A DNA stretch of 64,000 nucleotides, taken from assembly GCA_964016885.1 (NCBI GenBank), contig OZ024740.1, positions 343,542,001 to 343,606,000 of the forward strand. The letters run 5' to 3'. This document shows positions 5,631 through 53,112 of the stretch, piece after piece (position 1 is the first letter of the stretch; each line of letters begins with the position of its first letter). The DNA is from Eledone cirrhosa (lineage: Eukaryota). The position numbers were made by a program, and so were the translations under genes. The notes beneath the pieces were generated by a model that saw only the letters and a program-made list of their open reading frames with translations, did no database searches and had not been told where the DNA came from.

Positions 5631-6230
5631 AACCGCATTCAAGATTGCATGATTCTAGCATTAACCCTTCATAGTCATCTTATGGACATTTCAGCCGACG
5701 CACGAATCTCCGTGTTGTTACACATTTGCACAGCCACGATTCATGAGAACGTCATTATATTTCTCCACATAGGATTTGCTGCAACAATCTAAATCCACAT
5801 ATACACAGTCAACAACTCAAATAATAAATAATAGAAATATAGCTTATTTGTACAGAGAAGGATATTTCTACATAGGAAAGTAATTCTTGTAATTTTTATT
5901 GATGATATCTTTGCTGGTATTTATTGAATTTAATCTAATTTTCATTAACATTTATATAAACGAGATGAAATTTGGTTTGTATAAACCCCATGAACTAAAG
6001 TACATTCAACAAAATCATGGGCAGCAACGTAGAAACCATACTCTTCGTCCTTAATACTCGCAAACCCCTGTTTATGTATGCACATATGCAAGTTATATAT
6101 ATATATGTAAGTAATATATATATATATATATATATGTAGGAGGTGAGTTTTATTGTAGTACAATAAAGCAATGCAGATATCGGATAAGTAGCACTCTACA
6201 GTTTGTAGGACTGGAGTATAAATAATATAT

Positions 6231-7133
6231 AAGATCAAAAGATGGTTAAAAGAGTTCCATGTATTTTATTATGCGCATTTCAAAAACAAATATCATCATG
6301 CGATGACATTTGCGTTTTTGTCAGATAAAATAGGGAGACATGATATGAAGGTTAAAAAACACTTGTGAATAGTGCAGTTTTAAATCAACATATGAAAAAT
6401 AGTTTTAGATTGATGTGTGATATTTTAAAAAAAATTGAAGGGGGAGGGGGTTGGAAAGGATGAAAAAGGGGAGGAGATGAGAGTAAAGAATGAAGGGGGA
6501 GGAGTATAATAAGGAAGGATGAGATAGGAGGAGAGATGGGTGATAGAGAGAGAGAGAGATAGCTTTTATAACTGAGAAAAATATATTGTTTTACAGAGAG
6601 AGGTTAAAAAACCGTTGGAAGATAATATATAAATTAAAAGAATTTGATAATTAACGAAAAGAAAAATTTAAGAATAATATACAAACCCTACTAACATTAT
6701 TCTTAAATTTTTCTCTTCGTTAATTTTCAAATTCTTTTAATTTATATATTATCTTCCAACGGTTTTTTTCACCTCTCTCTGTAAAACAATATATTTTTCT
6801 CAGTTATAAAAGCTATCTCTCTCTCTCTATCACCCATCTCTCCTCCTATCTCATCCTTCCTTATTATACTCCTCCTCCTCCATTCTTTACTCTCAACTCC
6901 TCCCCTTTTTTATCCTTCCAACCCCCCTTCAATTTTTTTCCCAATATCATACATCAATCTAAAACTACTTTTCATATGTTGATTTAAAACTGCACTATTC
7001 ACAAGTGTTTTTTAACCTTCATATCATGTCTCCCTATTTTATCTGACGAAAACGCAAACGTCATCCCATGATGATATTTGTTTTTGAAATGCGCATAATA
7101 AAATACATGGAACTCTTTTAACCATCTTTTGAT

Positions 7134-7136
<3 letters not shown>
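6231..7136. mobile_element. ~900-bp fold-back palindrome inserted in (TA)n, HHR-bearing
   Basis: 6231-6678 is the diverged reverse complement of 6697-7136, with an ~18-bp spacer. Confidence 0.85.
7035..7104 (+). ncRNA. type I hammerhead ribozyme with long stem II
   Basis: TATTTTAT-CTGACGA-AAACGCAAACGTCATC CCAT GATGATATTTGTTTTT-GAA-ATGCGCAT-A-ATAAAATA; the mirror copy at ~6262-6332 has a core mutation (CTGACAA). Confidence 0.8.
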
Positions 7137-7221
<85 letters not shown>

Positions 7222-9446: not shown

Positions 9447-9682
9447 TATAATAGAAAAAACGACGAAGTTTCGTTTACATATCAAAAAATATTTAATGCG
9501 CATCGACCTGTTACACGCGTTTTGCAGAGGATTAGCTCAAGATGACCAACAGGAGTATGGACCCGACTGGTGATGCAACATGGGACCCCTTGAGTTAATC
9601 CTCTGCGAAACGCGTGTAAAAATACACGTGCAATAAATATTTTTCATATGTAAACGAAACTTCCTCGTTTTTTTCTATTATA
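9447..9682. mobile_element. MITE-like element with ~95-bp imperfect inverted arms
   Basis: TATAATAGAAAAAACGACGAAGTTTCGTTTACATAT...GAGGATTAGCTCAAG is inverted at 9589-9682; TA ends. Confidence 0.7.
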
Positions 9683-9932: not shown

Positions 9933-9979
<47 letters not shown>

Positions 9980-9982
<3 letters not shown>

Positions 9983-10531
9983 TTATACTTTGAGAGGGTC
10001 ATGTTGCCAATAAGAAACACACGCACCAGTTGCATTCACTTCAATTTATTATAAATTAAATTTATAAATTTAGGCATTTATCAATTTCTGGTTGGTTGGT
10101 TGGTTCCACAACCAGACGACTGTTCATATATTGTCAAAGTTCTTTCGTCATAAATAAACAAATATAACCACACACAGACACCCGGATGTAACACATGCGC
10201 AAACTAAGCACACAACACACACAAAAACAAGATGGCGTAGGACAGAACAAAGGAGAGGCACAAAAACAAAGAAAAGAATCCCCAGTCACTGAAGAGGTCA
10301 CATAATGTGTGACGAAAGAACTTTGACAATATATGAACAATCGTCTGGTTGTGGAACCAACCGGAAATTTATAAATTCTTAAATTTATAAATTTAATTTA
10401 TAATAAAATGAAGTGAAAACACTGGTGCGTGTGTTTCTTATTGGCAACATGACCCTCACAAAGCATAACAATATCGGTTTCAACACACGTTTTCAGATAA
10501 AGAATCTTGCTAAACAAATTCAGAAACGAAA
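9980..10531. mobile_element. palindromic pLTR-only derivative of the PLE at 41.7-51.5 kb
   Basis: Both ends match the PLE 3' terminus (CTTATTGGCAACATGACCCTC...) pointing outward into (TA)n; HHR at 10285-10327 (+). Confidence 0.9.
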
Positions 10532-10678
10532 TATATATATACACACATACATATATATGTATAGCTATATAAATACATATTTATATATATACAAACACAT
10601 GTACATACACACATATACATATATATATATAAATATACATACATATACCTACATATGCATATACACATATATATACAT

Positions 10679-11168: not shown

Positions 11169-11282
11169 GAAAAAGTAAGACCCCGACGGCAGAGCTCAAG
11201 CCGTTTCGACGGCTATTTCTGAACTCAGAAATAGCCTTCGAAACGGCTTGACCTCTCTGCCGTCGGGGTCTTACTTTTTCCT
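11169..11282. mobile_element. hairpin element family H (half-hammerhead palindrome) in (TA)n
   Basis: GAAAAAGTAAGACCCCGACGGCAGAGCTCAAGCCGTTTCGA... is mirrored about 11222; related copies at 19.6, 19.8, 22.8, 23.1, 37.4, 40.2 and 62.5 kb. Confidence 0.85.
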
Positions 11283-19573: not shown

Positions 19574-19681
19574 GGAAAGGAGTCAGGGGTCCTGACTCCT
19601 TTCCTATTACCCACTCTATTACCGTAAGTATTGAGTACTCTGGTGATTTATGGTCCACCTGGTATCTTACCACACCCTCTC

Positions 19682-19717
<36 letters not shown>

Positions 19718-22826: not shown

Positions 22827-23033
22827 GGAAAAAGTTTAACCTCGACGGCAGAGCTCAAGCCGTTTCGACGGCTATTTCTGGACTAAATTCGAATTTAGTC
22901 CAGAAATAGCAGTTCAAACGGCTTGAGGTCTGCCGTCGGGGTTAAACTTTTTCCTATTACCCACTCTACTACCCTAAGTATTGAGTACTTTAGTGTGTTA
23001 TGGTCCATCTGGTTTCTTACCACAACTCCTTCG

Positions 23034-23066
<33 letters not shown>

Positions 23067-23190
23067 AAAAGAGAGAGGACCTCGATAGTTGAGCTCCGGC
23101 CGTTTCCTATTACCGACTCTACTACCCTAAGTATTGAGTACTCTGGTGCGTTATGGTCCACCTGGTATCTTACCAAACCCTCTTTGTTAT
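22827..23190. mobile_element. two family H copies separated by (TA)n
   Basis: Palindrome centred on CTGGACTAAATTCGAATTTAGTCCAG; shared tail TTACCCACTCTACTACCCTAAGTATTGAGTAC...ATGGTCCA. Confidence 0.85.
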
Positions 23191-27277: not shown

Positions 27278-27710
27278 ATAATGATTTCTTATATAGGCAC
27301 AAGGCCAGTCATTTTGGGGGAGGGGAAAGTCAATTAAATCGACCCATGTGCGTGGCTGGTACTTTATTTTATCGACCCCGTAAGGATGAAAGGCAAAGTT
27401 AACCTGGACGGGATTTGAACTCAGATCATAAAGGGTCGTAACTCTATGCTGCAAATCATTGCGTCCGACCCTCTACCGATACTGCCAATCCACTGCCCTA
27501 TAATTCTAACTAATAATAAATAACTGTTTCTACTTTAGGCACAATGCCAGCAATTACCCAGTGCATTACTGGTACTTTATTTTATCGACCCCGTGAGGAT
27601 GAAAGGCAAAGTCAACCTCGGCGGGATTTGAACTCAGATCGTAAAGGGACGTAACTATGCTGGAAAGCATGGCGTCCGACCCTCTACCAATACTGCCAAT
27701 CCACCGCCCT
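27278..27710 (-). mobile_element. two SINE family A copies (long and short variants)
   Basis: 27278-27500 has the extra TTTTGGGGGAGGGGAAAGTC segment; 27520-27710 is the short form. Confidence 0.9.
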
Positions 27711-42175: not shown

Positions 42176-45100
42176 TTAATTGTAAGTTGTGATGTTGCTG
42201 TTCCACTCATATTTTCTATTTAATTTTGGTTTTAATTCTTTTATGCTTACTGCCTCTGTAATTTGCCTAAACATTGCGTCTTTCTTGTGTGTGGATTCTA
42301 TTTTTATTTCTATGCTCTCTAATTTACCCCTGTGTTCTATCTTAGCATGTTGGTAGAGCACAGATGATTCTTTACTATCTTGGAGGTCTCGCCAGTGTTC
42401 ATTTATTCGTTCCCCTATACTACGAGCTGTCTCACCTATGTACACTATATTTTTGTTTCTACATTGTCCCTCAGTACATCTTATGCTATATACTACATTT
42501 CTAGTTTTACAGTTAATATGGGGGCTTATTTTACAGGTTATACATTTCTTATCTATACATGAGGGTCTTTGGAACGGGTATGTCTTGCTAATAAGTGTTT
42601 TTACGGAGGTACCAGGTCTTTCTACTATCTTAATATTGAGATTATGTTTCTTTAGGGCCCTTCTAAATTTGTAGGCTAGTTCACCTCTAGGGGTTGTATT
42701 GATGAACATTACACTCTGGTATTTATTGCTATCATACCATGAGTTTATTCTATTGGCCTTGTTCTTAGTTCTTTCTATTCTATTCCAAAATTTGCTCCTA
42801 TACAAGGGGCAGGTCCCATTTATGTCATTATTTACCATTTTTTCCCATTTGGTTCTGGCTCCTTTATACACTCTGATTCTATCTCTCTGATTGTAGCCAG
42901 ATAACTGCATACGGTGGATGAAGTGTTGTATGTGTCTCTCTAGTTCTTTGGGGTTGCACATGCGGGACACATTTCTCATCACCCGTACCAAATCCGCAAT
43001 CAGTATGTTGATTTTGGTATGGTCCGAAATGGCCGAGTTTCGGTGGATCAGATGTTTGGAAGTCATGGGTTTGGCATAATGGGAATGGAGGATTTGTTTT
43101 TGGTTGTTAATAGTATCTAACCAGAGCTCTGTGTCTAGTACAGGTAATCGATGGTTGGGGTGTCTACTTGGGTAGTCTATAGTAACTCTAATGCTCTGGT
43201 GGATGGAGTTTGCTATTTGCTGGATGCTTTCCATTGTGTTTTTCTCAGGTTCCTGACTGTTCTTTAGTGGGGGTGTCTTAACTACGATGTTTATATCATC
43301 TACGTAGCGGGAGTACATTATCAGGGTTAATCTGTCTTCTAATTGTTCTTTAAGTTTTTGTTTAAGTCTACTGTCCCACCATACCATGAACAAGTTAGCT
43401 ATGTCGCCTGCAATGCTAACACCAATGGCTGCTCCTTCCTCTTGGGCATATGTTTTACCATTAAATTTGAACATATGTTCCTTAAGGGTTAATTTTATGC
43501 TGGCCCCTACCGCATGTGCAATCATTTTCTTCAGTTCATCGTGGTTTTCGGGTGTCCGTATGGCTCTGGTCCACCCGTTCCATCTATCTGTGTGGGTTTT
43601 CTTGGCCATTGAGGTAATGGTAGGTGGTCTGCCTCTTGCTGGTCTTGTAGGGCACAGGTTGCTAAGGTCATAAGTGTCTAGGTAACTATTACTATGGGTA
43701 AGCTTAAGTAGAAGTCCCAGCTCACTGGTATCAGTCCCACGGAACTCAACCTTGCTCTCGCTGATCATTTCGACGCATTTCTCCACAGCAAAATCCACAT
43801 CAATAGATGGATACAGGGACACAACATCCATACTGCCTATTATGCAGTTTGTTAGGTCCCCAGATCGGTTACCCGCGTCGATTCTGCTGAGGAGGTCCTC
43901 CGTGCTGTCACACACATCTGGGGACATCTCAATGATGGGGCGTATGATCAGGGAGAGGAAGTAGGACAGTCTGTAGTTACTAGCAATGTTAGCCCCACAG
44001 ACTGGCCGTGTTGGTGGTCCCGCGACAGGGTCCCAGCCCGTTTTATGGTCCTTTCGAAGCCCATACAACGCCGGCACGTCATTGTTCCAGGCCTGGAAGT
44101 TGTTGGCAGTCCTTTTGTTGGGCTGCATTATATTTGTCCACATCACCATATGGGCATTGAGGGTTTTTTCTCTGTCCTCATGCTCCTGTGGTGTTACCTC
44201 TCTTGTGTTAGTGATGTGGGGTTGCATTGCCTGGATGTAGTTTGGCAGGCTGTCAACCGACATTCTGCCAGACTTGTCTGTTGGAAAGCATGCTATCTCT
44301 CCATTACGCGAGCGCTGCATGAGCTTACGCAAGCCATTTGCAGATTCTTCTCCCAGTTGCTGGGCCTCTATTCTATTATGCTTCTTGCTATACTGTTCTA
44401 TAATATTTCTAAGTTCGGATTTAGCTATACTAAATTGTGCTTCTGTTTGTTCATCGACCTGCGACGGCAACTGCGTGCGTTTGTTAAATGGCAAAGTCGT
44501 GGCGTGGACTCGTCGTAGGTCGAATGATTTATCGGAGGGATTATAAAACGGAGAGTTCCAGGCTGCTGCTTTATGTGTACTTGCGCTATTGTTAGTTGTG
44601 TTGTTTCTATTTCCACCAACAGCAGCAGCCTCAGCTTCATGGTTGTTTCTATGTCTCTCATAATTACTCCTGTCTCTTTCCACTGGCTCAATGTTGTTAT
44701 CTACCCTATTTTGTGTGTCTGTGTGTTCGTCTTGGTTATTCTCTTTGTCCTTAGTCTCCCTACTCCTTTTAATCCTATTACTTTCTCTTATTTCTCTGAT
44801 TTCTGTGCTACTGTCATTACTTGTTTTCTGTGTCTGTGTGTTTGTTAAGATTGTAGTGGTGGTGAGAGGCATTGAATGTGTGTGTGTTGTTGTTGTTGAT
44901 GTGTGTTGTTGTTGATGTGTGTTGTTGTCTCCGTGTGTGTGTGTGTTATCGTTGTTGTGTGTGTTGTTATTGTTGTTTGTGTTTGCTTGTCTGTTGTTGT
45001 TGTATCTGGGTATGTTGCTGTTGTTGTTGTTGTTGATGTGTGTGTTGTTGTTATTGTTGTCTCCGTGTGTGTTGTTATTGTTGTTTGTGTCTGCGTGTCT

Positions 45101-45982
45101 GTTGTATCTGGGTATGTTGCTATTGTTGGTATTGTATCTGGGTATGTTGCTATTGTTGTTGTTATTGTTGTTTGTGTCTGTGTGTCTGTTGTTGTTGGGA
45201 TGTGTGTTGTATATGTGTGTGCGTATATTGTTGCTTTTGTTTTTGTTTTTGATGCTCCAGCGTAGTTTCGTAAATGATTTTTCTATTTCTGACAGACAAC
45301 TAATCATATTTACCTTCTTGAATGTCGCAAATTTGGGTGGCAGACGTAACACAGACATTTCATTATTATCTATTTTCGTGTTTCCATAAATGTTGGTATT
45401 TTTATTGTTGAACTCTTCAGATAATGAGGTGTCGGCCATGTTGATACCGTCAATTTTGTCGGGATATCTATTGGTATACTCTATAGTATCCCGATTTAGC
45501 TTTGCCTGTTTAAGCCACTTTAATTTTCTGTTAAAGTGCTTATTACATTCTTGAGTAATGTACTGTTCTTCGGGGCGTATAAGGCTTATAAATGTTAGTT
45601 TTTCTGCTGGTGTGGTGATTTTAGATATTTCATCTATTAGGTTACGCTTTAGTTTTTCTTGATGACTTAATTCTCTATAGATCTTCTTTTTTATGTTTAG
45701 AATTAAAGTTCGTTTTAGCCTATCTGCTTGTTTTTTGGTGAGTTGTAATCTTCTAACGTCGGTATTGATGGTGTTGGTGTAGATTCTAGAAGTGGTGCAC
45801 AGTTTTATGAAGTGTAGTTGTCGAGATGTTATGGTTTTTCGTAGACAACAGAACATGGTGGTTTTCAGTATCTTGTTAGCCTGGCTAAGGCTTACGATAT
45901 TTCGTTTCTGAATTTGTTTAGCAAGATTCTTTATCTGAAATCGTGTGTTGAAACCGATATTGTTATACTTTGGGAGGGTCAT
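42176..45982 (-). CDS. PLE polyprotein: reverse transcriptase + Cys linker + GIY-YIG endonuclease
   Basis: LPPKFA, TDKSG, PALYGLRKDHK, RPVC, SMDVVSLYP, GAAIG..IANLFM, RYVDDI, CIDKKCITC, VVYSIRC..YIGETAR..ERINEH; open frame from 46006, first ATG at 45982. Confidence 0.95.
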   Translation of the reverse strand: MTLPKYNNIGFNTRFQIKNLAKQIQKRNIVSLSQANKILKTTMFCCLRKTITSRQLHFIKLCTTSRIYTNTINTDVRRLQLTKKQADRLKRTLILNIKKKIYRELSHQEKLKRNLIDEISKITTPAEKLTFISLIRPEEQYITQECNKHFNRKLKWLKQAKLNRDTIEYTNRYPDKIDGINMADTSLSEEFNNKNTNIYGNTKIDNNEMSVLRLPPKFATFKKVNMISCLSEIEKSFTKLRWSIKNKNKSNNIRTHIYNTHPNNNRHTDTNNNNNNNSNIPRYNTNNSNIPRYNRHADTNNNNNTHGDNNNNNTHINNNNNSNIPRYNNNRQANTNNNNNTHNNDNTHTHGDNNTHQQQHTSTTTTHTHSMPLTTTTILTNTQTQKTSNDSSTEIREIRESNRIKRSRETKDKENNQDEHTDTQNRVDNNIEPVERDRSNYERHRNNHEAEAAAVGGNRNNTTNNSASTHKAAAWNSPFYNPSDKSFDLRRVHATTLPFNKRTQLPSQVDEQTEAQFSIAKSELRNIIEQYSKKHNRIEAQQLGEESANGLRKLMQRSRNGEIACFPTDKSGRMSVDSLPNYIQAMQPHITNTREVTPQEHEDREKTLNAHMVMWTNIMQPNKRTANNFQAWNNDVPALYGLRKDHKTGWDPVAGPPTRPVCGANIASNYRLSYFLSLIIRPIIEMSPDVCDSTEDLLSRIDAGNRSGDLTNCIIGSMDVVSLYPSIDVDFAVEKCVEMISESKVEFRGTDTSELGLLLKLTHSNSYLDTYDLSNLCPTRPARGRPPTITSMAKKTHTDRWNGWTRAIRTPENHDELKKMIAHAVGASIKLTLKEHMFKFNGKTYAQEEGAAIGVSIAGDIANLFMVWWDSRLKQKLKEQLEDRLTLIMYSRYVDDINIVVKTPPLKNSQEPEKNTMESIQQIANSIHQSIRVTIDYPSRHPNHRLPVLDTELWLDTINNQKQILHSHYAKPMTSKHLIHRNSAISDHTKINILIADLVRVMRNVSRMCNPKELERHIQHFIHRMQLSGYNQRDRIRVYKGARTKWEKMVNNDINGTCPLYRSKFWNRIERTKNKANRINSWYDSNKYQSVMFINTTPRGELAYKFRRALKKHNLNIKIVERPGTSVKTLISKTYPFQRPSCIDKKCITCKISPHINCKTRNVVYSIRCTEGQCRNKNIVYIGETARSIGERINEHWRDLQDSKESSVLYQHAKIEHRGKLESIEIKIESTHKKDAMFRQITEAVSIKELKPKLNRKYEWNSNITTYN

Positions 45983-46115
45983 GTTGCCAATAAGAAATAC
46001 ACGCACCAGTTGCTTTCACTTCAATTTAATTTAATATATATTTATAAATTTACAAATTTATAAATTTCTGGTTGGTTGGTTGGTTCCACAACCAGATAGT
46101 TGTTTATATATATAT

Positions 46116-46160
46116 AGTCATAGTTCTTTCGTCACACACTCTGTGACCTCTTCAGTGACT
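46116..46160 (-). ncRNA. minimal hammerhead ribozyme in second pLTR
   Basis: Identical to 41835-41879. Confidence 0.85.
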
Positions 46161-46456
46161 GGGGATTTCTTTCTTCGTTTCTGTGCCTTTCCTTTCTTCT
46201 ATCCTACGCCATTTTGTTTGTGTGTGGGTTGCGTGCTCAGTTTGCGCATGCGCCACATCCGGGTGTCTGTGTGTGTTTGTGTTCATTTTTCTATTTTTCT
46301 ATTTATATTTGTTTGTTTATTTATTTATTTATTGTTGGTTGGTTGTTTGTTCTATGTGTGTGTGTGTTTTCATTTTGTCTTGTGTGTGTTTTCATTTTGT
46401 GTGTGTTTTCAATTGTAAGTTGTTTATATATGTGTGTGTGTGTTTTCATTTTGTCC

Positions 46457-49400
46457 TTAATTGTAAGTTGTGATGTTGCTGTTCCACTCATATTTTCTAT
46501 TTAATTTTGGTTTTAATTCTTTTATGCTTACTGCCTCTGTAATTTGCCTAAACATTGCGTCTTTCTTGTGTGTGGATTCTATTTTTATTTCTATGCTCTC
46601 TAATTTACCCCTGTGTTCTATCTTAGCATGTTGGTAGAGCACAGATGATTCTTTACTATCTTGGAGGTCTCGCCAGTGTTCATTTATTCGTTCCCCTATA
46701 CTACGAGCTGTCTCACCTATGTACACTATATTTTTGTTTCTACATTGTCCCTCAGTACATCTTATGCTATATACTACATTTCTAGTTTTACAGTTAATAT
46801 GGGGGCTTATTTTACAGGTTATACATTTCTTATCTATACATGAGGGTCTTTGGAACGGGTATGTCTTGCTAATAAGTGTTTTTACGGAGGTACCAGGTCT
46901 TTCTACTATCTTAATATTGAGATTATGTTTCTTTAGGGCCCTTCTAAATTTGTAGGCTAGTTCACCTCTAGGGGTTGTATTGATGAACATTACACTCTGG
47001 TATTTATTGCTATCATACCATGAGTTTATTCTATTGGCCTTGTTCTTAGTTCTTTCTATTCTATTCCAAAATTTGCTCCTATACAAGGGGCAGGTCCCAT
47101 TTATGTCATTATTTACCATTTTTTCCCATTTGGTTCTGGCTCCTTTATACACTCTGATTCTATCTCTCTGATTGTAGCCAGAGAACTGCATACGGTGGAT
47201 GAAGTGTTGTATGTGTCTCTCTAGTTCTTTGGGGTTGCACATGCGGGACACATTTCTCATCACCCGTACCAAATCCGCAATCAGTATGTTGATTTTGGTA
47301 TGGTCCGAAATGGCCGAGTTTCGGTGGATCAGATGTTTGGAAGTCATGGGTTTGGCATAATGGGAATGGAGGATTTGTTTTTGGTTGTTAATAGTATCTA
47401 ACCAGAGCTCTGTGTCTAGTACAGGTAATCGATGGTTGGGGTGTCTACTTGGGTAGTCTATAGTAACTCTAATGCTCTGGTGGATGGAGTTTGCTATTTG
47501 CTGGATGCTTTCCATTGTGTTTTTCTCAGGTTCCTGACTGTTCTTTAGTGGGGGTGTCTTAACTACGATGTTTATATCATCTACGTAGCGGGAGTACATT
47601 ATCAGGGTTAATCTGTCTTCTAATTGTTCTTTAAGTTTTTGTTTAAGTCTACTGTCCCACCATACCATGAACAAGTTAGCTATGTCGCCTGCAATGCTAA
47701 CACCAATGGCTGCTCCTTCCTCTTGGGCATATGTTTTACCATTAAATTTGAACATATGTTCCTTAAGGGTTAATTTTATGCTGGCCCCTACCGCATGTGC
47801 AATCATTTTCTTCAGTTCATCGTGGTTTTCGGGTGTCCGTATGGCTCTGGTCCACCCGTTCCATCTATCTGTGTGGGTTTTCTTGGCCATTGAGGTAATG
47901 GTAGGTGGTCTGCCTCTTGCTGGTCTTGTAGGGCACAGGTTGCTAAGGTCATAAGTGTCTAGGTAACTATTACTATGGGTAAGCTTAAGTAGAAGTCCCA
48001 GCTCACTGGTATCAGTCCCACGGAACTCAACCTTGCTCTCGCTGATCATTTCGACGCATTTCTCCACAGCAAAATCCACATCAATAGATGGATACAGGGA
48101 CACAACATCCATACTGCCTATTATGCAGTTTGTTAGGTCCCCAGATCGGTTACCCGCGTCGATTCTGCTGAGGAGGTCCTCCGTGCTGTCACACACATCT
48201 GGGGACATCTCAATGATGGGGCGTATGATCAGGGAGAGGAAGTAGGACAGTCTGTAGTTACTAGCAATGTTAGCCCCACAGACTGGCCGTGTTGGTGGTC
48301 CCGCGACAGGGTCCCAGCCCGTTTTATGGTCCTTTCGAAGCCCATACAACGCCGGCACGTCATTGTTCCAGGCCTGGAAGTTGTTGGCAGTCCTTTTGTT
48401 GGGCTGCATTATATTTGTCCACATCACCATATGGGCATTGAGGGTTTTTTCTCTGTCCTCATGCTCCTGTGGTGTTACCTCTCTTGTGTTAGTGATGTGG
48501 GGTTGCATTGCCTGGATGTAGTTTGGCAGGCTGTCAACCGACATTCTGCCAGACTTGTCTGTTGGAAAGCATGCTATCTCTCCATTACGCGAGCGCTGCA
48601 TGAGCTTACGCAAGCCATTTGCAGATTCTTCTCCCAGTTGCTGGGCCTCTATTCTATTATGCTTCTTGCTATACTGTTCTATAATATTTCTAAGTTCGGA
48701 TTTAGCTATACTAAATTGTGCTTCTGTTTGTTCATCGACCTGCGACGGCAACTGCGTGCGTTTGTTAAATGGCAAAGTCGTGGCGTGGACTCGTCGTAGG
48801 TCGAATGATTTATCGGAGGGATTATAAAACGGAGAGTTCCAGGCTGCTGCTTTATGTGTACTTGCGCTATTGTTAGTTGTGTTGTTTCTATTTCCACCAA
48901 CAGCAGCAGCCTCAGCTTCATGGTTGTTTCTATGTCTCTCATAATTACTCCTGTCTCTTTCCACTGGCTCAATGTTGTTATCTACCCTATTTTGTGTGTC
49001 TGTGTGTTCGTCTTGGTTATTCTCTTTGTCCTTAGTCTCCCTACTCCTTTTAATCCTATTACTTTCTCTTATTTCTCTGATTTCTGTGCTACTGTCATTA
49101 CTTGTTTTCTGTGTCTGTGTGTTTGTTAAGATTGTAGTGGTGGTGAGAGGCATTGAATGTGTGTGTGTTGTTGTTGTTGATGTGTGTTGTTGTTGATGTG
49201 TGTTGTTGTCTCCGTGTGTGTGTGTGTTATCGTTGTTGTGTGTGTTGTTATTGTTGTTTGTGTTTGCTTGTCTGTTGTTGTTGTATCTGGGTATGTTGCT
49301 GTTGTTGTTGTTGTTGATGTGTGTGTTGTTGTTATTGTTGTCTCCGTGTGTGTTGTTATTGTTGTTTGTGTCTGCGTGTCTGTTGTATCTGGGTATGTTG

Positions 49401-49985
49401 CTATTGTTGGTATTGTATCTGGGTATGTTGCTATTGTTGTTGTTATTGTTGTTTGTGTCTGTGTGTCTGTTGTTGTTGGGATGTGTGTTGTATATGTGTG
49501 TGCGTATATTGTTGCTTTTGTTTTTGTTTTTGATGCTCCAGCGTAGTTTCGTAAATGATTTTTCTATTTCTGACAGACAACTAATCATATTTACCTTCTT
49601 GAATGTCGCAAATTTGGGTGGCAGACGTAACACAGACATTTCATTATTATCTATTTTCGTGTTTCCATAAATGTTGGTATTTTTATTGTTGAACTCTTCA
49701 GATAATGAGGTGTCGGCCATGTTGATACCGTCAATTTTGTCGGGATATCTATTGGTATACTCTATAGTATCCCGATTTAGCTTTGCCTGTTTAAGCCACT
49801 TTAATTTTCTGTTAAAGTGCTTATTACATTCTTGAGTAATGTACTGTTCTTCGGGGCGTATAAGGCTTATAAATGTTAGTTTTTCTGCTGGTGTGGTGAT
49901 TTTAGATATTTCATCTATTAGGTTACGCTTTAGTTTTTCTTGATGACTTAATTCTCTATAGATCTTCTTTTTTATGTTTAGAATT
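46457..49985 (-). pseudogene. 5'-truncated second copy of the PLE ORF (RT and EN intact)
   Basis: Identical to copy 1 apart from L/F at RMQxSG; homology stops at 49985. Confidence 0.9.
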
Positions 49986-50028
49986 CAAACATCTGATCCA
50001 CCGAACTCTTCTTTTTTATGTTTAGAAT

Positions 50029-50912
50029 CCAAACATCTGATCCACCGAAACTCGGCCATTTCGGACCATACCAAAATCAACATACTGATTGCGGATTTGG
50101 TACGGGTGATGAGAAATGTGTCCCGCATGTGCAACCCCAAAGAACTAGAGAGACACATACAACACTTCATCCACCGTATGCAGTTCTCTGGCTACAATCA
50201 GAGAGATAGAATCAGAGTGTATAAAGGAGCCAGAACCAAATGGGAAAAAATGGTAAATAATGACATAAATGGGACCTGCCCCTTGTATAGGAGCAAATTT
50301 TGGAATAGAATAGAAAGAACTAAGAACAAGGCCAATAGAATAAACTCATGGTATGATAGCAATAAATACCAGAGTGTAATGTTCATCAATACAACCCCTA
50401 GAGGTGAACTAGCCTACAAATTTAGAAGGGCCCTAAAGAAACATAATCTCAATATTAAGATAGTAGAAAGACCTGGTACCTCCGTAAAAACACTTATTAG
50501 CAAGACATACCCGTTCCAAAGACCCTCATGTATAGATAAGAAATGTATAACCTGTAAAATAAGCCCCCATATTAACTGTAAAACTAGAAATGTAGTATAT
50601 AGCATAAGATGTACTGAGGGACAATGTAGAAACAAAAATATAGTGTACATAGGTGAGACAGCTCGTAGTATAGGGGAACGAATAAATGAACACTGGCGAG
50701 ACCTCCAAGATAGTAAAGAATCATCTGTGCTCTACCAACATGCTAAGATAGAACACAGGGGTAAATTAGAGAGCATAGAAATAAAAATAGAATCCACACA
50801 CAAGAAAGACGCAATGTTTAGGCAAATTACAGAGGCAGTAAGCATAAAAGAATTAAAACCAAAATTAAATAGAAAATATGAGTGGAACAGCAACATCACA
50901 ACTTACAATTAA
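50029..50912 (+). pseudogene. inverted 3' fragment of the PLE ORF (thumb + GIY-YIG)
   Basis: SKHLIHRNSA...EWNSNITTYN is identical to the C-terminus of copy 2. Confidence 0.92.
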
Positions 50913-51208
50913 GGACAAAATGAAAACACACACACACATATATAAACAACTTACAATTGAAAACACACACAAAATGAAAACACACACAAGACAAAATGAA
51001 AACACACACACACATAGAACAAACAACCAACCAACAATAAATAAATAAATAAACAAACAAATATAAATAGAAAAATAGAAAAATGAACACAAACACACAC
51101 AGACACCCGGATGTGGCGCATGCGCAAACTGAGCACGCAACCCACACACAAACAAAATGGCGTAGGATAGAAGAAAGGAAAGGCACAGAAACGAAGAAAG
51201 AAATCCCC

Positions 51209-51253
51209 AGTCACTGAAGAGGTCACAGAGTGTGTGACGAAAGAACTATGACT
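51209..51253 (+). ncRNA. minimal hammerhead ribozyme in inverted pLTR
   Basis: Same motif on the + strand. Confidence 0.85.
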
Positions 51254-51466
51254 ATATATATATAAACAACTATCTGGTTGTGGAACCAACCAACCAACCA
51301 GAAATTTATAAATTTGTAAATTTATAAATATATATTAAATTAAATTGAAGTGAAAGCAACTGGTGCGTGTATTTCTTATTGGCAACATGACCCTCCCAAA
51401 GTATAACAATATCGGTTTCAACACACGATTTCAGATAAAGAATCTTGCTAAACAAATTCAGAAACG

Positions 51467-51500
<34 letters not shown>

Positions 51501-52410
51501 GTAGAACTTTATTATATACAATTATAACCATTATCATTTACCTAAAGTATACTGTATCACTAATACATAATATAAAATATATCCATATATAACTCCCAAG
51601 TATCTTTATATACATAATTTTCAGTTAACTTCTAAATTTTTTGATTGTTTTTACTTTGAGCTAGGAATAATTAATACATGTACACACGGTTATATATGGG
51701 TATATATTTAGTTTTAACATGCCTCAACCTATTATTTTTTTTATTTTCATTTTATTTTCATTATCATTTACCTAAAATATACGGGCTCATTAATTAATTA
51801 ATATATATCTATATACATAACCGTTATTTAAATTTTATAACAATAAGTACTTCAAAAGCTTTATATACCTAATACGTTGACAATAACTAACTTCATTAAA
51901 GATTACATTTAGGAAAATATTCAACAGTGTAAACTTTCCTTAATAATGGCCAGCTAAACCCTTTTAATCTTATCATCAACAAATTCAGAAGCTTAGAAAT
52001 GTTAACACACTTATAAAATTTACAAAACTAATATATAAATAACCACCAATTTAAAAAAACAACAAAATATTGATTCTTCACCCTAAGATAACATAAATTA
52101 AATATTTTCAAACTTAAACGTTTAACTTTCGGAAAAAAATCTCCTTCTGCATACATTACCCCCCTTCTGTCACTGACTGTTATAATTCATGAAATGCTTT
52201 GCTAGATAAATTGTAGTATCATACATATTAAAATCTCGATAACTGGTACATTAAGCAACGTTTTTCTTACTCACACATTCTCTATTGAATTTATTACGTT
52301 TTCGCATTTTCTCATTATTAGGGTATAAATGTTAAATTTTCTCTTAGGTTAATCACTACCTTGATTAAATCTTAACCATTTAACATCTCAGGGTATGTCA
52401 TATATCATTA

Positions 52411-52460
52411 TATTGTGTCTGATGAGGACGTACTGTTGTACATCCGAAATATGTATAATA
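52411..52460 (+). ncRNA. hammerhead-like motif of the host PLE
   Basis: TATTGTGT-CTGATGA-GGACGTAC TGTT GTACATCC-GAAA-TAT-GTATAATA; stem III and cleavage site are ambiguous. Confidence 0.65.
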
Positions 52461-52762
52461 AAATGTAATTGATCAAAAGAACATCTATTTTATTAATATT
52501 TATATTCTAATATTAATAACTCCGGAAAATTATTTTACCGTAAAGTGCTTCCAATCTACTGTAAAACTCATTCTTTGATATACTCATTGAATTTTGTTTA
52601 ACTCTTCAATATATATATTGTTTATTTATTAAAATAACAATTTAAAGTTTAAATAAAGAATCGCTCTATGGTTTTATATATTTTTATATATATATTATCC
52701 TTGTCGATCCCTCTCCGGATTTTCGTCTTCGCATTTATTATTATTACTACCCCCCCCCCCCC

Positions 52763-52819
<57 letters not shown>

Positions 52820-53062
52820 TCGTTTCTGAATTTGTTTAGCAAGATTCTTTATCTGAAATCGTGTGTTGAAACCGATATTGTTATACTTTGGGAGGGTCAT
52901 GTTGCCAATAAGAAACACACGCACCAGTTGCTTTCACTTCAATTTAATTTATTATATATTTATAAATTTACAAATTTATAAATATATAATAAATTAAATT
53001 GAAGTGAAAGCAACTGGTGTGTGTGTTTCTTATTGGCAACATGACCCTCCCAAAGTATAACA

Positions 53063-53063
<1 letters not shown>
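52820..53063. mobile_element. mini-palindrome derived from the PLE 3' terminus (no HHR)
   Basis: Mirror about TTTATAAATTTACAAATTTATAAA; arms end at the same two PLE endpoints in (TA)n. Confidence 0.9.

Positions 53064-53112
<49 letters not shown>

Follow-up and report, generated by a model that had tools for sequence, protein, structure and literature searches.

Mini-palindromes of a Penelope-like element in Eledone cirrhosa turn at an AT hairpin of the pLTR and suggest cDNA fold-back combined with twin priming

In LINE-1 twin priming, both strands of the target prime and the product has a head-to-head junction with microhomology; LINE-1 inversions consist of non-overlapping parts of one RNA, with a poly(A) end and a target-site duplication (TSD). 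Self-annealed 3' ends are also reported to prime inverted duplications of LINE-1 (10.1101/2024.12.14.628481). For Penelope-like elements (PLEs), inverted copies, tails and a bias towards (TA)n are standard, and the origin of their tandem and inverted structures has been called an open question (PMC8557442). The inverted junctions of Penelopes consistently hold palindromes, which were best read as self-priming, and palindromes of 18 and 38 bp were described at the pLTR ends of Adineta vaga Penelopes (PMC3846280). In the anole PLE, the tail lies between two internal reverse transcriptase (RT) starts, and in vitro the target is cut and extended on each of its strands; the steps after first-strand synthesis are left unvalidated in the accessible text of that study (PMC11167929).

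The window analysed here is a stretch of 64,000 nucleotides from Eledone cirrhosa (GenBank assembly GCA_964016885.1, contig OZ024740.1, positions 343,542,001 to 343,606,000 of the forward strand), and all coordinates below are positions within it. It is AT-rich with many (TA)n tracts and includes an assembly gap, an N run of 200 bases at 30258-30457. A young insertion at 41676-51472 (unstranded) is an endonuclease-bearing (EN+) PLE. It starts with a short end at 41676, continues as a partial tandem of two units to 49984, and carries its long end on an inverted arm of 1445 nt at 50028-51472 (long-end arm 1.4 kb, short-end arm 8.3 kb). The inverted arm matches unit 2 exactly, and one internal site differs between the units. 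This is the architecture of EN+ PLEs, i.e., a pLTR from a partial tandem, an inverted 5'-truncated copy and a one-sided tail. As regards target-site duplication, all ten ends of the five copies of this family in the window sit in (TA)n. The tail, 60 nt at 45897-45956 (minus strand), spans the interval from ORF +26 (short end) to ORF +86 (long end) and would be bounded by two RT start sites. The pLTR end repeat contains the ORF start, an AT hairpin and a putative ribozyme, namely, a minimal type I hammerhead-like motif at 41836-41879 (minus strand; core 41874-41846), of which the core and stems I and II are supported by a pattern scan and by folding. Further hammerhead-like cores occur at 46155-46127, 51214-51242, 10289-10317 and 38300-38272; a hammerhead was absent among the 150 of 378 Rfam matches that were listed.

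The intact ORF of 1268 aa (42176-45982, minus strand) comprises an N-rich insert, a TERT-like RT, a CX4CxxC linker and, at the C-terminus, a GIY-YIG endonuclease. Upstream of the RT, an Asn/Thr/His-rich low-complexity insert spans 44900-45400 (minus strand). A Pfam scan of the full-length ORF returned 0 families, and a scan of its C-terminal 740 aa gave RVT_1 (E 2.5e-4, under the curated cutoff) and GIY-YIG (E 2.4e-4, 21.8 bits vs. a cutoff of 22.6). The AlphaFold model of the RT (pLDDT 88.6) had TERT as all of its best four Foldseek matches (top E 2.5e-9), and the RT as modelled is akin to telomerase RT, as is characteristic of EN+ PLEs. Sequence searches of the PDB gave no useful information, with an E of 0.16 at best in one and a bacterial defence RT at 2.8e-5 in another. 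The YIG lies at residue 1181, in the same ORF as the RT, and the linker before the endonuclease, of the CX2-5CxxC type, lies at residue 1142, with cysteines that are invariant in 45 sequences. RT motifs A and B are 131 aa apart (residues 719-850), the median being 132 in 112 homologues with a pattern match. The nearest protein relative is an Octopus vulgaris protein with 70% identity.

The C-terminal GIY-YIG, the CX2-5CxxC linker and the (TA)n bias are shared with the EN+ PLEs Nematis and Neptune, and the short linker and endonuclease are, judged by eye, closest to the Nematis rows (PMC8557442). According to the accessible text of the same source, the canonical Nematis and Neptune clades have no insertion between motifs A and B, whereas the present element has one, and a hand count gives an A-to-B spacing of only ~63 aa in the Poseidon row. 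Naiad and Chlamys elements have a fingers insertion of 20-40 aa (PMC8557442) at the same position as the ~68 extra aa found here, as compared by position and length, but their endonuclease is N-terminal, which separates them from this element. The mix of RT spacing, Nematis-like endonuclease and hammerhead lies outside the clades described in the accessible part of PMC8557442 and possibly marks an unnamed PLE lineage, with 140 hits. Poseidon PAc of the green anole likewise has a tail defined by two ends within the ORF start, targets that are rich in AT, and a pLTR hammerhead, but its tail is 30-40 nt long, and the accessible text of that paper does not treat inversion centres (PMC11167929). 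It also belongs to a different clade, Penelope/Poseidon being described, in the part of PMC8557442 covered, as lacking the linker Zn finger. Pen2, Pen2a and Pen3a of Adineta vaga resemble the element in their head-to-head inverted pLTRs, tail at one end, ORF start in the pLTR, junction palindromes, two-way TATA motif in the pLTR and N-rich ORF inserts; they differ in that copies with TSDs are found there, whereas the copies here sit in (TA)n (PMC3846280). That paper favours self-priming on an antisense template, and its accessible text holds no test of loop polarity, register or arm alleles. The element also stands apart from LINE-1 in that both arms copy the same pLTR, apparently from two fixed internal starts, and have no poly(A).

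The original prediction placed an AT hairpin in the pLTR at 41760-41786. Such a hairpin is present one to two bases away, at 41759-41784 (plus strand) in the terminal pLTR, ~70 nt upstream of the ATG, while the proposed layout of 12 + 3 + 11 nt has to be replaced by a foldable form with an 11-bp stem and the 4-nt loop TACA. Other copies are located at 46040-46065 (plus strand), at 51304-51329 (minus strand) and, inside one of the mini-palindromes, at 52958. The references of both subfamilies (A and B, see below) have no other perfect inverted repeat as long as the hairpin, which is included in the MFE and centroid folds of the cDNA strand. An 11-bp stem was obtained in 0 of 1000 shuffles of the 450-nt region; with the 47-nt AT block shuffled alone, it was obtained in 99 of 5000 shuffles for A, and a 13-bp stem in 22 of 5000 for B. 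The hairpin is made of tandem palindromic units and arises as a by-product of these. As RNA it folds weakly (-5.5 and -7.4 kcal/mol), and a GC stem of equal stability lies immediately upstream. The hairpin might also act as a TATA box, a parallel being the two-way TATA motif in the pLTR of Adineta vaga Penelopes (PMC3846280).

Two mini-palindromes in the window (both unstranded) are built around this hairpin. In m53 (52821-53066, subfamily A), the long (tailed) arm is on the left and the short arm on the right, and both ends are (TA)n; its central hairpin (52958-52983, plus strand) has an 11-bp stem and the loop TACA, and 93 of 95 pairs are mirrored about 52970.5, vs. 40 for the next-best centre. 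In m62 (61684-61931, subfamily B), the short arm is on the left and the long arm on the right, the stem is 13 bp, and 88 of 95 pairs are mirrored about 61779.5 (next-best centre 40); in both cases the outermost pairs extend into the TA flank. Each centre equals the loop centre of the parental hairpin, so the predicted exact mirroring about the hairpin was borne out. The same applies to the expectation that each mini keeps the loop variant of its own subfamily: m53 has the subfamily-A flank and the loop ACA, and m62 the subfamily-B flank and the loop AGG, the loops of B copies being AAG or AGG. Read from the long arm, the loop is native in both.

An alignment of all 11 arm and pLTR sequences gives two subfamilies that are ~10-14% apart. 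Both arms of m53 are A-type, as in the intact element, and both arms of m62 are B-type, as in the copies at 9977 and 38048. Arm-to-arm distances are 8-11% between m53 and m62 and 1-3% between m53 and the intact A element, and the arms of m53 differ from each other at only 1 of 94 sites. Since each mini carries the alleles of its own subfamily in both arms, derivation of one from the other is unlikely, and the alleles support an independent origin of hairpin-centred minis in the two subfamilies. The minis are not clones of each other, and a segmental duplication was ruled out by the similarity, which stops at the TA flanks. A MITE or other DNA-transposon derivative is unlikely: the ends differ by the 60-nt tail, and the parent encodes an RT, with no symmetric TIRs of the transposase type. 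Regarding microRNA precursors, the Rfam scan gave, among the matches listed, only sub-threshold microRNA matches (MIR5070 at 72.2 bits vs. a gathering threshold of 100, and MIR530 at 61.3 vs. 85), i.e., a generic match to a long stem. Annotation pipelines will score palindromes of this kind as microRNA-like stems or as MITEs, although they belong with PLE debris.

Five inverted copies of the family are present in the window, and the hairpin is the turning point in two of them, m53 and m62. The large element and two subfamily B copies (both unstranded), m10 (9977-10534) and m38 (38048-38777), traverse the hairpin in both arms and turn elsewhere, with junction homology of ~0-2 nt: m10 turns at 10150/10151 and m38 near 38504, each with ~1 nt of microhomology, and the central junction of the large element (49960-50050, unstranded) is an A-B-A-B templated duplication of both arm ends with little microhomology. 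Within the latter, two cDNA ends with a common motif (9/10 similar) form a short quasi-hairpin, a junction that we take to be like synthesis-dependent microhomology joining. The arms of m38 have private alleles in common, which fit copying and also later conversion between the arms. The hammerhead cut was considered as the cDNA end and is not supported, as it lies ~69 nt upstream of the hairpin centre; the short arm of m10 ends ~13 nt beyond this cut, inside stem II. An origin of the m10 arms from different masters (columns 157 and 173) was dropped, the signal being, on a rough estimate, at about chance level for 11 mismatches. Were single breaks placed uniformly, at least two of four to five turns would fall on the hairpin with a probability of 3e-5 to 1e-4 if the exact register is required and of 0.006 to 0.08 if a target of 15-30 nt is allowed, in a test that is post hoc. 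Of the 18 cDNA lengths per subfamily with a predicted paired 3' end, three (A) and five (B) fall to the hairpin, a joint chance of ~0.05. The favoured reading of these two events is that the hairpin is a preferred turning site and not an obligatory one.

The original prediction also pointed to a parallel with a 'family H', which it left without a definition; the likely candidate is a second family, which comprises seven small inverted elements in the window (11169-11281, 19575-19685, 22827-23034, 23065-23187, 37383-37503, 40195-40395 and 62508-62670; H11 to H62 below), itself likely another PLE family. Its members sit in (TA)n and have a tail of ~77 nt, H11 apparently having two short ends, and the window contains no intact parent. 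Symmetric centres are found in five copies, at five different distances from the short end, some centres of the family being loop-free or of 1-2 nt. The other two, H23 and H37, are asymmetric, with no symmetric centre (8/15 and 7/15 pairs). H62 turns within a native 5-bp GC hairpin, but in a register other than that of the hairpin. In H40, arm mismatches cluster towards the outer (distal) end, which is not so in two other aligned copies. The parallel is therefore a loose one: inverted copies do turn at weak stems, but the position differs in all seven, and the register of the native GC hairpin is not used. Turning thus seems to happen at many weak stems, with a strong stem merely concentrating the turns.

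Two features of the minis point towards fold-back. The same AT block contains loop-free palindromes of 14 bp (A, -9.7 kcal/mol) and 18 bp (B, -12.9 kcal/mol), whereas the observed looped register, taken as pairing between strands, reaches -7.7 (A) and -8.7 (B) kcal/mol, with duplex energies based on nearest-neighbour values of the literature. The register of both minis is the looped one, that of the predicted intramolecular fold; as two strands would pair better in the loop-free register, this points to intramolecular folding. The second feature is loop polarity, since the loop is native from the long (tailed) arm in all four scorable symmetric elements (m53, m62, H19 and H62; p = 1/16 under symmetry), H62 (62629) resting on one base and H19 (19589) on three. 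Three of the seven symmetric elements could not be scored for want of a tail (H11), a loop (H22) or a native reference (H40). Together, polarity and register support fold-back in a way that is suggestive but not conclusive.

Other features point to a second template. In each of the five copies, a long end (ORF +86) is paired with a short end (ORF +26), and the distal clustering of arm mismatches in H40 is a further indication. At column 71, 11 nt inside the short end, all three B copies have G in the long arm and A in the short arm (rough chance 0.005-0.02); the private alleles common to the m38 arms lie further in than this column. In three of the five asymmetric elements (the large element, H23 and H37), the short-end arm outruns the long-end arm; in H23 and H37, neither arm can have been copied from its partner. 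The inverted arm of the large element might alternatively stem from a switch of the cDNA onto its own internal unit; this would need passage through a TA run and the short site and an exact stop at the long site. The fixed long and short ends, the arm-specific base and the longer short-end arms require a separately primed second cDNA, although m53 by itself has no sign of two templates. The idea of hairpin-directed fold-back arising independently in two subfamilies is thus retained as far as separate origin, register and loop polarity are concerned, but fold-back alone is insufficient and the hairpin is used in two of five copies.

The explanation that we prefer, and to which we give about an even chance of being correct, combines twin priming at two RT start sites with snap-back of the long-primed cDNA at the hairpin. 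By analogy with the anole enzyme, the element's enzyme would cut both strands of a (TA)n tract and prime a cDNA on each, using the long start site for one and the short site for the other, and the two cDNAs would be joined head to head, mostly with little homology. At times, the long-primed cDNA would halt after ~165 nt, within the distal stem of the hairpin, and its 3' end would snap back on the hairpin and copy itself. If this snap-back copy then annealed to the short-primed cDNA of the other strand, a perfect mirror with the native loop at its centre would result, in which the inner part of the second arm was copied from the first cDNA and the outer part from the short-primed cDNA. The order of these events, the source of the second arm and the reason for the stop are what we infer; the anatomy, the centre, the register, the loop polarity and the separate origin in two subfamilies are what the copies show. 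On this model, the minis would be abortive insertions of the EN+ PLE. A polarised form of twin priming, in which only the tail-primed cDNA snaps back and thereby supplies the homology for joining the short-primed cDNA, is put forward more tentatively. In vitro, neither start site was tied to a particular strand by the anole enzyme (PMC11167929), which does not account for the pairing of long with short ends in five of five copies. What weighs against the preferred model is that it draws on two hairpin-centred events only, that three of the five copies pass the hairpin without turning, and that the hairpin is weak and has an equally stable GC stem just next to it.

Much of this could be had without any fold-back, if two cDNAs annealed through the hairpin sequence as 11-13 bp of microhomology. 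Twin priming of this kind explains why ends are long and short and covers the column-71 allele, the large element and the junctions with little homology, and the loop-free or nearly loop-free centres of family H are in line with it; it predicts, however, the stronger loop-free registers and loops that are native from either arm equally often, while the minis use the weaker looped register with the loop of the long arm, and we consider it unlikely, if the most serious of the competing accounts. A post-insertion central deletion in which the hairpin repeats of both arms served as microhomology, by host repair or replication slippage, shares the same expectation of four registers and runs into the same difficulty. 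Larger inverted copies are known in both subfamilies, each stem is itself palindromic and hence provides direct repeats in the arms, and microhomology deletions have been reported in Penelopes (PMC3846280). Such a deletion would nonetheless presumably replace a spaced repeat with a near-perfect palindrome of lower stability, and it is given very little credence.

The converse account dispenses with the second cDNA: a single cDNA folds back and serves as its own template, as in the original prediction and in the self-priming proposed in PMC3846280, and the product is then cut back to the short site by the endonuclease. Register and loop polarity are explained by it, as are the near-identical arms of m53 and the private alleles common to the m38 arms. 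It cannot yield a differing short-arm base in three of three B copies, nor the short arms that exceed the long arms in H23 and H37, and is regarded as improbable. The least probable of all is a MITE-like spread of the minis as units from one or a few palindromic founders, in which the common centre would be due to descent. The arm-specific base is conserved in three B copies and the minis are 91% alike over 336 nt including the TA flanks, as such spread would have it, but m53 and m62 match different subfamilies in both arms, and the three B copies have three different centres.

That inversion centres coincide with palindromes is already in print (PMC3846280), and the minis are a clean example of this known PLE behaviour. 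What is added here is a set of three read-outs that need only a genome and separate fold-back from strand annealing, namely, the register, the polarity of the loop with respect to the tail, and alleles that are specific to one arm. A literature search in which subscription papers and supplements were thinly covered found no centre histogram or loop-polarity test for PLEs, and the accessible part of a retrozyme preprint (10.64898/2026.07.22.740005) contains nothing on inversions. If the polarised form of twin priming is right, an expected number of thousands of mini-palindromes would record the second half of PLE integration through their centre, loop polarity and arm-specific alleles, and the record would come from a lineage in which the endonuclease is C-terminal and the fingers insertion unusually long.

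The window holds further repeats. A third PLE-like inverted element (40679-41635 and 51497-52760), with 342-nt arms that are 99% complementary, hosts the large PLE in its internal TA tract; it has a hammerhead-like motif at ~52419-52449 (by eye), and pieces of its long end are found again at 37151, 39883 and 61231. Two more head-to-head inverted elements lie beside TA tracts, each with a hammerhead-like core: 1517-2644, with a complex duplicated centre (core 2343-2367, by pattern), and 6217-7151 (core ~7045, by eye). Older imperfect palindromic elements to which no family was assigned are found at 9461-9667, 39061-39273 and 39495-39831. A frameshifted non-LTR retrotransposon with RVT_1 and zf-RVT matches is located at 32492-34427 (minus strand), and about ten copies of a 180-nt repeat that resembles a SINE or a LINE end occur at 645-900, 5454, 14959, 15550, 20772, 27342-27710, 35676, 39320, 53112 and 59018.
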